DNA from: Candidatus Bathyarchaeota archaeon
GTDB taxonomy: Archaea > Thermoproteota > Bathyarchaeia > Bathyarchaeales > Bathyarchaeaceae
Direction of reading: 5' to 3'
Assembly: GCA_963697165.1 (NCBI GenBank)
Contig: CAVOMX010000011.1
Span: forward strand, 128,001-192,000
Length of the DNA: 64,000 bases
Every line of letters begins with the position of its first letter. The stretch's first letter is position 1. This document shows positions 54,907 through 63,130 of this stretch, piece by piece. The notes under the pieces are model-generated. The model was given only the letters and a program-made list of their open reading frames with translations. It did no database searches and was not told the origin of the DNA. A program made the position numbers and the translations under genes.

Positions 54907-54993
54907 GGAGGGATGGCAGAGCGGATAACGCGCAGGCCTTGAAAGCCTGTGACCCCCTGGGTCGCGTGGGTTCGAATCCCACTCCCTCCGCCA
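54907..54993 (+). tRNA. tRNA-Ser(TGA), intronless, long variable arm, CCA encoded
   Basis: Acceptor GGAGGGA/TCCCTCC; CAGGC-CTTGAAA-GCCTG; GTGGG-TTCGAAT-CCCAC; G discriminator. Confidence 0.96.
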
Positions 54994-59099: not shown

Positions 59100-60300
59100 A
59101 TGAAATCACAAAACCCTGCCATAATCGGAGTCGGCAGGACAAAATTTGGAGAACATTATGAAAGAGAGCCTGAATCTCTAATAGAGGAAGCTGGACTTCA
59201 AGCACTAGATTCTGCGTGCATAACACGAAAAGACTTGAACGCCTGCTACCTTTCAGACTACTTCCTCCAAGTCACAAACAAAATCGGACTTGAAGAAGGC
59301 TTCTTTTCTGAACTCCTAGAACTTCATGTTCCAATGGAAAAAACCAGATCATTCAGCTCCGCACTTCTCAACGCCTGCCATGCAGTCAAATCAGGAACAT
59401 ATGACATTGTCCTAGTTGGCGGAATGGAGAAAATGACTGACCGCTGGGACAAAATCAGAGACGCCCTGATGCTCCTAGAGGACCCATGGAGCTACTATGC
59501 GGGATGTACACCCGAAGCAAATCATGAACTTCTTCTCAACGGATACATCAAAAAATACGGAATCTCCGGAGAGCAACTCGAAAAACTTTACAGGGCTCTT
59601 GCTCAGATATCCGTCAAAAACCACAACAACGCCACACAGAACCCCCACGCCCAATATCAGAGCGCCATAACAGTAGACACTGTATTGAATGCGCGGACTA
59701 CAGCCAGATCCTTGGGGCTCTTCGACTTTGCTCCCATCTCTGACGGAGCCTCAGCATTGATTCTGGCAAGCCCAGAGGTTGCCAAGAAATGTTCAAGCAT
59801 TCCGGTTCAGATTTTAGGATCATCTTCAGCCACAGACTACATCACCTTTCCCGCACGAAAGGACAGAACAGGATTTGTAGCAAACACGTTAGCCATGCAG
59901 ACCGCCCTCAAACAGGCTAAAGTTGAAGTGGCTGACATTCAGATAGCAGAGCTCTACGATCAATCAACGCTCCTGGAAATGCTGTCTCTAGAAGACATGG
60001 GTTTCTCCAAGAGAGGAAAAGCATGGCTTGACATATACAAAAGCTGCGAATCCTATCAGTGGCTTCTACCAAATCGAGGGCAGAAAGCTTTTCGTAAACT
60101 TGAATGGAGGTCTCAAGGCTGACGGGAATCCCCTTGGAGCCACTGGAGGAGCCCAAATATTTGAGGTTGTTAAACAGTTAAGGGGAGAAGCAGGTAGCCG
60201 ACAGGTTCACGTGAACGGAGAAGCTCCTAGGCTGGGTTGTGTTTCAGAGCTGGAAGGTTTTGGCACAAAAGCGTACATAAACATTTTGGGGAGGAGCTAA
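59100..60300 (+). CDS. Thiolase-fold protein lacking catalytic Cys and His residues; frameshift near 60055
   Basis: [33 protein letters not shown] and GGLKA.G.PLGATG are retained; the EAACAS, HD and GH motifs are lost. Confidence 0.88.
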
Positions 60301-60301
60301 A

Positions 60302-61808
60302 ATGAGCAGCGAACCAATCGAAAGAAGAGTCTCCTACATAGGGGATAGACTACGAGCTAGCCAGTGCACTCTCTGCGGAAAAGAGTACTTCCGAGGCAAA
60401 AACTATTGTGGCAACTGCGGACGAAAGAGCATTCGGAAAGATGAAGGACTTCGATTTCTTCTATGAACAGGGTAATATTGAAGTCTCCACTATCGTTAAA
60501 CAACCCACTAACAGGTTCGTCAAGATGGGTTCATATATTTACGGAATTGTCTCATTCCACAATGGAAACACTCGAGTTCCAGGAAGACTAACAGATATCC
60601 TGCTTAAAGACGGAGATGATAGCTCCTGTTTTGATGGAAAAAACGTTGTCCCACGGTTCCGAAGAAGACACACCGTAGGAGAAAGTGACATCATCCCCAC
60701 AATCTCTCTTGCTTTTACTCTTGCTGACGGCTACTATCCACACCAAAAATGCGAAATTCATAAACCCAAAAAAGAGTATGAAACATCTGGAATCGTCGGA
60801 TATGGAGTCTACACCTCAAAATTCCGAATCAAAGAAGGAAACATGGAAAGGTCTGTGCCATTCATCGACGAAGACGCTGTCACTGCATCAGTAGAAGCAG
60901 GAAAATTGGCTCTAATCCATTCAGGAGTAGACAAAACATCCATCGGCAAAGTTTACGTCGGCTCAGAATCTAACCCATACGCTGTTAACCCAATAGCCTC
61001 CAAAGTAGCCCAAGTTCTAAAGCTAGGCAAAGAAGAAAAAAATGGAGTCCAAAGCGTGGACGCCATCGACACCGAGTTTGCGTGCAAAGCAGCCACGAGC
61101 ATGTTCAAGGATGCCGCGTCCCTTGTTTATTATCCAAAAACCAAAACAGACTACGCCATGGTAATAGGAGCAGATAACTCTCAAGCTGCCCCCAGAAATG
61201 AGCTGGGAGGCGAACTGGACCATTTCGTGGGTTTTGGCGGTTCAGCATTCATCTTCGGCATGCATGATGTTATAGCCGAGGTTGAAGGATGGTACTCCTG
61301 CACATCAGACATGCCAGACTTTTGGAGAAGAGACATGCAAGCTTATCCCAGACATGGCGGACGATTCACAGGTGAACCTGCCTACTTCAAGCACGTCATA
61401 AAAGCTTGCAGAACAATCATGGAGCAACTGAACCTCAAAGTTGAGGATATAGACTATTTTGTTCCTCATCAGCCAAACCTTGGTTTTCCAGTTAAAGTTG
61501 CAAAACAACTGGGATTCAAAGAGGAGCAATATTTGCCAAGCCTAAAAGTTGCCAATTTCGGAAACGCATATTCTGGTTCTTCGCCTATCGGCTTGGCGGC
61601 GGTTCTAGATGTTGCTAAACCAGATGAACGGGTAGTCCTTGTCAGCTACGGCTCTGGGGCTGGAAGCGATGCATACTCTTTCATGACAACCAGTCAAATA
61701 TTAGAGAAAAGACCACGGCAGAAGTTTACGGTCCGTCATCAGATCGAAAACGAGAACTTGGAATATGTGGATTACCACACTTACAGACGACTCAAAAACG
61801 GAATCTAA
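60302..61808 (+). CDS. Fusion of DUF35 (Zn-ribbon + OB-fold) and archaeal HMG-CoA synthase; frameshift near 60430
   Basis: CTLCG...CGNCG Zn ribbon and OB-fold (V.PRFRR). The OB-fold is continuous with GIVGYG, DED..T, GSES.PYAV.P, EFACKA, WRR....YP.HGGRFTGEPAYFKH, HQPN, GN.YSG, SYGSGAGSD. Confidence 0.9.
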
Positions 61809-62055: not shown

Positions 62056-63130
62056 GTGCATCTGGTTGGTCGCAAAACGAGAAATAATTGTATGGATTAT
62101 GCATATTCGCAACTTTTCATGTCAATCATGGGTTCCTTTGCCATGGTTAACTTGCTGGTAAACAATGAACCAGGCTATGTTGTAACTCCTTACCTCATAG
62201 GCAGGATAGCCGGTTCCCTCAGCGTAGAGACATATTTGTGGATTTTCATAACTTCAACATTCATCTTTCTGGGAATCACCTGCATAATCATATACCGTAA
62301 ACAGCCCCCTAACCCTGAAATTGTTAAACTGTTCCTGAAAGTAGGCGGAAACTTGGCTGCCCTTAGGAAAACCCAGGAAGCCTCAACAGCTGAGATGGCT
62401 GAACAGATGGAATACGGTAGAAAGGTGAACCAGAAATTCTTCAGCACAGTCAGCTCAGATCTCGAAGAAAACAACAAAGAAACTTTAGCTCTTTTGACCG
62501 CCCAAGGAAAAGCAGTCAAAAAGGTTGGTTCAGACCTGATTTCCACGATAGAGAAAAAGGCAGACGAAACTGGAGAAAAGATGGTTGCTGATCTGAAAAA
62601 ACAAGAAGCAGCAATGATTGGAGTCAAGCGCTTAAGCGAAGAAGGCGCAGCGGCGACTAAGAAGCAGCAGGCGGAGCTTGCAGAAATTAAACTTAGACTC
62701 GAAAGAATCGAGGGAAACATGGCACCGAATCAAGCTAAGCTGAAGAGCCTTGACAATCCTGAGGACATAAAAGGAATCGGTCCAGCTTTGGGAAAAGAAC
62801 TAAGAAGCCTTGGAATAACGTTCTGTTGGCGATCTCCTCACAACCGACCCCGCGGTCATCGGAGAAAAGACGCGAGTTTCCCAAGAGATGGCGGAGAATC
62901 TGCAGGCAACGGCTCAGCTTATGATGATTCCGGGAGTGGACTCAAGTGACGCTGAATTACTTATAGATGCAGGAATAAAATCGCGAAAGGAACTGGCAGA
63001 CAATGAGCTGATTCAGCTTAGCAGAAAAGTAGGAGCACTAGCCAAAATCTATGTTGCTCAAGGCAAAATTTCCAAGGACGAATACCCAACAATCGAAGAG
63101 ATATCATCTTGGATAAGAATGGCAAAATAA
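62056..63130 (+). CDS. Membrane-anchored coiled-coil protein with C-terminal DUF4332 / helix-hairpin-helix region; frameshift near 62822
   Basis: 2 TM, coiled coil, IKGIGP...L...GI, then IPGV....AELL..AGI and P..EEI..WI..AK. Confidence 0.78.

Follow-up and report, generated by a model that had tools for sequence, protein, structure and literature searches.

The window analysed here is a 64,000-nucleotide stretch of contig CAVOMX010000011.1 (positions 128,001 to 192,000) from a Candidatus Bathyarchaeota archaeon, whose genome is called G000 below. On its + strand it carries two adjacent genes: a thiolase-fold gene without catalytic residues (59100..60300) and a gene starting at 60302 in which a DUF35 domain runs into an HMG-CoA synthase (HMGCS, or HMGS). 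The pair is a real form of the archaeal thiolase/HMGCS/DUF35 complex, found order-wide and maintained by selection, in which the thiolase subunit is catalytically dead. Most probably, the thiolase-like protein is a non-catalytic subunit of the housekeeping complex at the entry of the mevalonate pathway, and acetoacetyl-CoA comes from another thiolase. The archaeal complex is the model case for channelling past the unfavourable thiolase step. Here the complex was kept and the thiolase chemistry dropped, in one of the most widespread orders of sediment archaea and independently in another lineage of the class. This makes it possible to test cleanly whether the complex serves channelling or the assembly of a short HMGCS, since the two-gene operon occurs in nature both with an intact and with a dead thiolase and the two can be compared side by side.

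The thiolase-like gene and the DUF35::HMGCS fusion

The first gene belongs to the SCP2-type archaeal acetoacetyl-CoA thiolase (AACT) family. It is matched by Pfam Thiolase_N and Thiolase_C_1, with PRK06064 as the best NCBIfam family, below its cut-off. The closest solved structure by sequence is 6ESQ chain A. A fold search with the monomer model (mean predicted local distance difference test score, pLDDT, 86.9) gave the Methanothermococcus thiolase 6ET9/6ESQ as closest (template-modelling score, TM, 0.86); Ltp2 and Sal ranked 21 and 29, below the mevalonate thiolase. From 171 relatives detected in a scan of GTDB genomes, 80 loci were retained. The closest named relatives, Candidatus Bathyarchaeum, are 84-89% identical, and the orthologous proteins are about 400 residues long. 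In databases these proteins are annotated as acetyl-CoA C-acetyltransferase, a label that misassigns the first mevalonate step in reconstructions of Bathyarchaeia.

All canonical thiolase motifs are altered (window coordinates, + strand; residue numbers below are those of the orthologue L001). At 59346..59360 the sequence RSFSS marks a four-residue deletion of the Cys loop, seen as a gap in alignments with intact sisters; intact thiolases read EAACAS there, and R, S, F and S are each present in 80/80 loci. YDQS (59955..59966) stands where intact thiolases have HDCF, with Y in 79 of the 80 loci (H in one) and D, Q and S in all. GNP replaces GHP within GNPLG (60124..60138), and the Asn was found in 79/79 loci long enough to include the position. 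Finally, ELEGF (60247..60261) aligns with the HNxGG of intact sisters, a loss beyond those named in the initial annotation of this DNA; ExEGFG was read in 76/80 rows, and at least three of the other four stop at a contig edge. The initial annotation had described the Cys-loop deletion as in frame and inexplicable by a frameshift. This was borne out, as the deletion is in frame in 80/80 loci and a frameshift as the source of the missing Cys is ruled out. Loci with both the Cys/His loss and the fusion include five single-contig genomes.

According to PMC12960953, PfACAT lost almost all thiolysis on substitution H294Y at the HDxF motif, and the archaeal complex with H284A no longer formed HMG-CoA. 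Because the Cys is gone and changes at this His have such effects, the thiolase-like protein is predicted to be unable to act as a thiolase. The altered positions are nevertheless strongly conserved. A set of 18 old-site positions was partly picked for conservation, and the counts are restricted to the 11 positions defined by the four canonical motifs; these are at least 99% conserved, compared with 109/353 other positions conserved at 97% or more. Fifty-four residues are newly fixed in the dead thiolase relative to six intact sisters, and the same fixed residues recur in distant families outside the class. A diverged member of the dead family (L156:2308-3510, G035) has lost the YDQS and GNP residues too, the one case of a drifting rebuilt pocket. 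Some genomes of the order carry, near DUF35-like genes, tandem divergent thiolase-like genes without canonical motifs (L103, L106, L207).

The second gene begins with a DUF35 domain, a four-Cys Zn ribbon plus OB fold (60302..60770, end approximate; Cys pairs at 60365-60376 and 60407-60418), and continues into an archaeal HMGCS domain (60783..61808, start approximate) with the E-C-H-N residues intact (GSES at 60960, FACK at 61077, HQPN at 61467 and GNAY at 61560). All motifs named in the initial annotation were located in the window sequence, and the OB-to-HMGCS junction is in frame as it had stated. A single frame of about 503 residues holds both Zn ribbon and HMGCS query in 75 of 76 loci extending into the second gene, and the catalytic Glu, Cys, His and Asn show no variation across 47/47 aligned fusions. 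A profile of 31 N-terminal domains gave 6ESQ chain E (DUF35) as its best match in the PDB (E 9.8e-18). Pfam zf-ChsH2 is below its cut-off in the window fusion and above it in sister fusions, and Pfam OB_ChsH2_C fails to detect the fused OB domain. The HMGCS domain matches NCBIfam PRK04262 (365.7 bits, cut-off 244). For all three parts, thiolase, DUF35 and HMGCS, a 6ESQ-type complex is the best solved relative.

The two genes are tightly coupled, with -11 to +4 bases between thiolase stop and fusion start in 49/49 loci measured. Median ratios of nonsynonymous to synonymous substitution (dN/dS) are 0.10 for the thiolase, 0.12 for DUF35 and 0.076 for HMGCS (55 pairs, 15 genomes), which shows the dead thiolase to be under purifying selection. 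The survey proposed with the initial annotation found the Cys/His loss and the fusion kept across orthologues; the contrary pattern, an intact Cys and His with separate DUF35 and HMGCS genes, did not turn up among them. No second, canonical HMGCS was found in G000, where the fusion is the sole HMGCS and HMG-CoA reductase is present. Among 401 genomes of the phylum that were searched, those with the fused N-terminal domain include 51/54 other members of the order and 26 from outside the class. Therefore, the operon is a housekeeping mevalonate entry and not a side pathway, and a different product, as the initial annotation had considered, is unlikely.

In the window assembly both genes are broken by one-base insertions, a point absent from the initial annotation, near 60058 in the thiolase and at 60432-60434 in the Zn ribbon, owing to which GNPLGATG and the Zn ribbon fall into other frames. 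The extra base at 60058 is missing from the near-identical short-read contigs X1 and X5, and that at 60432/60434 from X1, X3 and X5 (independent runs). In the G000 assembly 7/27 test genes are split, both operon genes counted. Therefore, these insertions are assembly errors, and a true pseudogene in G000 is ruled out; the orthologues of both genes are whole. The thiolase stop codon lies at 60298-60300 and the fusion ATG at 60302, and the one-nucleotide spacer noted initially is indeed present in the window; X3 and X5, however, carry one additional base behind 60302, and the spacer may be specific to this assembly. Contigs of the RNA run X15 on the locus are short, and as contigs cannot show transcription they were not used. 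Further one-base breaks in the G000 assembly affect the downstream gene (window 62056-63130) and the DUF35 gene that accompanies the second thiolase (G000:C17:70205-70728).

Order of events and relation to known systems

Thiolase trees were quick trees with support from the SH-like approximate likelihood ratio test (SH-aLRT) only. In these, the dead family is one clade (SH-aLRT 100) on a long stem branch (0.74-0.83), nested among operons in which this fusion accompanies an intact thiolase. By this nesting, the DUF35::HMGCS fusion arose before the catalytic loss. Three separate genes are kept in other families of the class. Among these is a second dead lineage, 20 three-gene HMGCS loci (L119, L120, L123, L126-L128 and L130-L143) with Ser, Gln or Asp for the Cys and, in 17/20, Asn for the GHP His. 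Its loss is graded: the first Cys is kept in L129, and GHP in L123 and L127. The pantetheine-loop pattern matched 0/20 in this lineage, and no claim is drawn from it there. A tree with both dead groups as one clade was rejected (log-likelihood 122 lower; approximately unbiased test, p-AU 6.5e-57), with groups that had been named after the first tree was inspected. Judged from these trees, the second lineage lost catalysis independently, and the dead family has an origin separate at least from it. L144 (G009), on a long branch, looks like a third loss.

The closest known system is the Methanothermococcus thiolase/HMGCS/DUF35 complex, which likewise has adjacent genes, an active HMGCS and the same position in the pathway. 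As in the archaeal channelling complex, the three homologues are encoded together and the HMGCS has its E-C-H-N tetrad. However, here there are two genes and not three, DUF35 is N-terminal on HMGCS, and the thiolase has lost the Cys, both His and HNxGG, so that the CxS, HDxF and GHx motifs are absent. Therefore, no channelled Claisen step is expected here.

Hoshino and Gaucher (2018, PMC6107057 supplement) list HMGS-syntenic AACT homologues without the Cys-His motif in Thermoplasmata, Crenarchaeota and Chloroflexi, propose compensation by an unlinked paralogue or thiolase II, and call for biochemistry. The present family agrees with that class in having a motif-less thiolase beside HMGS and a motif-bearing paralogue or thiolase II elsewhere. 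On the other hand, that supplement, in the portion covered, has no Bathyarchaeia among its exceptions (the HMGS lengths it gives for Bathyarchaeota are 348 and 453 residues), no DUF35, no fusion and no reason for retention. In the Pseudomonas fluorescens ACAT/HMGS-DUF35 system, MucABC and PhlABC, the same three folds occur with one subunit kept without catalytic residues, and an HMGS-DUF35 fusion exists in P. fluorescens (PMC12960953). These are the mirror image of the present operon, since there HMGS is dead and the thiolase Cys is kept; moreover, the fusion order is HMGS-DUF35 and the systems do not serve mevalonate synthesis.

Ltp2-ChsH2(DUF35), Sal-Shy(DUF35) and TbSLP share a Cys-less SCP2-type fold, a Tyr at the position of the HDxF His and a DUF35 partner (PMC12329534). 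However, they read YDHF, YDCY or YDCF, compared with YDQS here. The general acid is the Cys of YDCY in Sal and a second Tyr plus the His of YDHF in Ltp2, whereas Gln (80/80) and Asn (79/79) stand at these places in the dead family; Ltp2 Tyr344 would correspond to the GHP position. The Cys loop is substituted there and deleted here, and DUF35 sits on an acyl-CoA hydratase there and on HMGCS here. Membership in the Ltp2/Sal retro-aldolases was thus rejected: the Tyr base is present, but the acid residue and the hydratase-linked DUF35 are absent.

In the literature search, whose supplements were covered in part, no description of the dead family or of an N-terminal DUF35::HMGCS fusion was found. 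The string 'Bathy' has no match in the text of PMC12960953 and four of its supplement files, and the dead family is not described in the portions covered of 10.1101/2024.07.05.601840, PMC11052028, PMC6393860 and PMC12979851. The initial annotation had called the system undescribed. This applies, within that search, to the dead family and the fusion, but not to the general phenomenon, which the PMC6107057 supplement notes for other lineages.

Retention of the dead subunit and the source of acetoacetyl-CoA

In the mechanism that we prefer, the two genes would encode a reduced form of the HMG-CoA synthase complex of the mevalonate pathway, with an active HMGCS that carries the DUF35 scaffold at its N-terminus and a thiolase subunit that would no longer condense acetyl-CoA. 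Archaeal HMGS alone is reported to be inactive (PMC12960953); archaeal HMGCS is 50-100 residues shorter than others and shares its CoA site with the thiolase (PMC11522927), and in longer HMGCS homologues the enzyme's own tail occupies the place of DUF35 (PMC12960953, PMC11522927). Because the archaeal enzyme is short, inactive alone and dependent on a shared CoA site, the dead thiolase may be kept for the assembly of HMGCS and DUF35 and, by analogy to the Methanothermococcus complex, might also complete the CoA site. Acetoacetyl-CoA would be supplied, without channelling, by a separate intact thiolase/DUF35 pair or by an imported bacterial-type thiolase.

A model of the complex was made for the L001 pair. 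The interface score ipSAE was 0.77, with 0.00 for the best of three controls; the ipSAE mark was attained by 116/157 solved pairs and 2/215 mismatched pairs. At least 92% of contacts agree between runs, and partner pLDDT is at least 92. In the model, thiolase residues 117-148, 202-205 and 250-257 contact the DUF35 domain (residues 113-128 are of low confidence in the monomer model), and the newly fixed residues 120, 130-133, 139 and 144 fall within this interface. Because a like complex is already solved, the score indicates likeness to it and not binding.

The distribution of thiolases across genomes supports well that part of the initial annotation which saw a scaffold with acetoacetyl-CoA from elsewhere. 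A search for a second, active thiolase had been suggested there; G000 contains two intact ones, and a DUF35 gene goes with each. Among genomes of the order, 235/251 have a Thiolase_N match stronger than 1e-15, a threshold chosen after dead copies were seen to score 1e-14 or weaker; 14 have a weaker match and two none. Low scores in G213 and G202, two of the 14, were not taken as absence, since a stronger thiolase is there cut into pieces by contig ends. The second thiolase is unlinked to the operon and about 36% identical. In 23 of 24 loci it comes with a DUF35 gene of its own, and in the 24th (G000) that gene is frameshifted. In several relatives a thiolase/DUF35 pair occupies the slot beside a HAD gene, and in G025 and G098 a bacterial-type thiolase takes the place of the usual second thiolase.

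Outside the class, two or more thiolases are present in 12/13 genomes whose dead copy was read, and a single one in 6/6 genomes with an intact fusion-linked thiolase (four rechecked). Inside the class, the intact operon thiolase is the sole thiolase match at E 1e-60 for 8/8 three-gene operons and 3/8 fusion operons. In all, the intact HMGCS-linked thiolase is the only match in 17/22 genomes; these genomes are related and the counts not independent, and G409 (fusion-linked thiolase) and G030 (partly degenerate) were left out. In the second dead lineage, 9/10 genomes have another thiolase with the Cys loop and GHP, and the tenth has a contig-end piece. Five genomes (G019, G046, G051, G202 and G219) have, in place of the fusion, a stand-alone haloarchaeal-like HMGCS of 457-466 codons (L177:1495-2859 in G019; L176 and L178-L180; part of one family), with one thiolase match, whose motifs were read for G019 and G046, and no dead copy. 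In these five, the dead gene is thus gone together with the short HMGCS, while the second thiolase stays.

Several observations weigh against this explanation. The complex model has no confident contact between the thiolase and the HMGCS domain. The replaced residues do not drift, and a pure scaffold has no obvious need of such conservation; the second dead lineage is far more variable at the same positions. Furthermore, a genus represented by just two genomes, G074 (95% complete) and G173 (93%), has the dead pair (L235, G074:C2:100000-116000; L236, G173:C11:26000-41000) and HMG-CoA reductase. In the searches run, which did not include acetoacetyl-CoA synthetase, neither genome showed another thiolase or DUF35 pair, nor a 3-hydroxyacyl-CoA dehydrogenase, an enoyl-CoA hydratase, a CoA transferase or a second FabH-like protein. 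Their HAD-gene slot is empty on long contigs. As absence across the order fits genome incompleteness, the missing thiolase in G074 and G173 may be a gap.

The conservation might instead mean that a rebuilt pocket (Tyr287, His142, Glu139, Glu384, Glu386, Arg83, Lys391 and Asn344) adds a job to the scaffold, either binding a metabolite through which HMGCS is regulated or catalysing, without a Cys, a reaction such as retro-aldol cleavage or acyl-CoA hydrolysis. We consider this less likely than a plain scaffold, but a fair chance. These residues are nearly invariant across the 80 loci and several families outside the class, were fixed after the long stem branch, and include a Tyr at the position of the catalytic base of Ltp2 and Sal (PMC12329534). 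However, the known general-acid positions are amides (Gln at Sal Cys304/Ltp2 His296, Asn at GHP), and with no general acid at either position the Tyr-based chemistry offered in the initial annotation does not match that of the Ltp2/Sal class and seems unlikely. In addition, the loop bearing Sal Gly89 is deleted, no gene for a hydratase or a substrate pathway was found in linkage with the pair, the fixed residues 120, 130-133, 139 and 144 have a place in the modelled DUF35 interface, and salt bridges and bulky residues could merely plug the cavity. A plug, a ligand pocket and new chemistry are each compatible with a rebuilt, conserved site. It seems doubtful that the pocket, with its nearly invariant Tyr, His, Glu and Arg, serves Cys-independent catalysis or sensing, possibly in a way that allows thiolase-free HMG-CoA synthesis in the genus of G074 and G173.

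A mixed dimer, in which the dead subunit pairs with an intact thiolase, anchors it to the fusion and so keeps channelling, is improbable. Thiolases are dimers, a second SCP2-type thiolase is rarely missing, and several newly fixed residues (65-83) precede the deleted loop, in what is presumably the dimer-forming region. However, the second thiolase already has its own DUF35 gene in nearly all loci, is unlinked and diverged, and in G025 and G098 has given way to a bacterial-type enzyme with which it shares about 20% identity.

Very improbable, too, is a self-sufficient pair making HMG-CoA from acetyl-CoA alone, with either the HMGCS site or the rebuilt pocket carrying out the Claisen step. It would account for G074, G173 and 12 further genomes of the order in which the searches run found no second thiolase. 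Yet these 14/251 (5.6%) are scattered and about as many as expected for 90-100% completeness, and G031 is a weak case, its congener G227 having an intact-type score. The second thiolase is near-universal beside dead copies and often missing beside intact ones, as if the function had been handed over, and G125 retains it though no enoyl-CoA hydratase was found there. Lastly, an artefact or a decaying pseudogene, suggested by the frameshifts in both window genes, is already refuted for the family by the extra bases missing from near-identical contigs and by orthologues that are whole, conserved and under purifying selection.

Other HMGCS architectures in the class

A third architecture of the class is an HMGCS of 508-548 codons with a C-terminal Zn-ribbon, DUF35-like tail (L157:3976-5502 in G015, and L158-L162). 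No thiolase lies within about 2.5-4 kb of these loci, and E-C-H-N was read in L157. In G015 (100% complete) the single thiolase match is an intact thiolase/DUF35 pair elsewhere. L155 (G045) and L163 (G009) have an intact thiolase, then an HMGCS-like gene without matches to the catalytic-motif patterns, plus a DUF35 gene, and are possibly of the mirror type with a dead HMGS. Upstream of the operon, the window carries a tRNA-Ser(TGA) gene (54907-54993, + strand).

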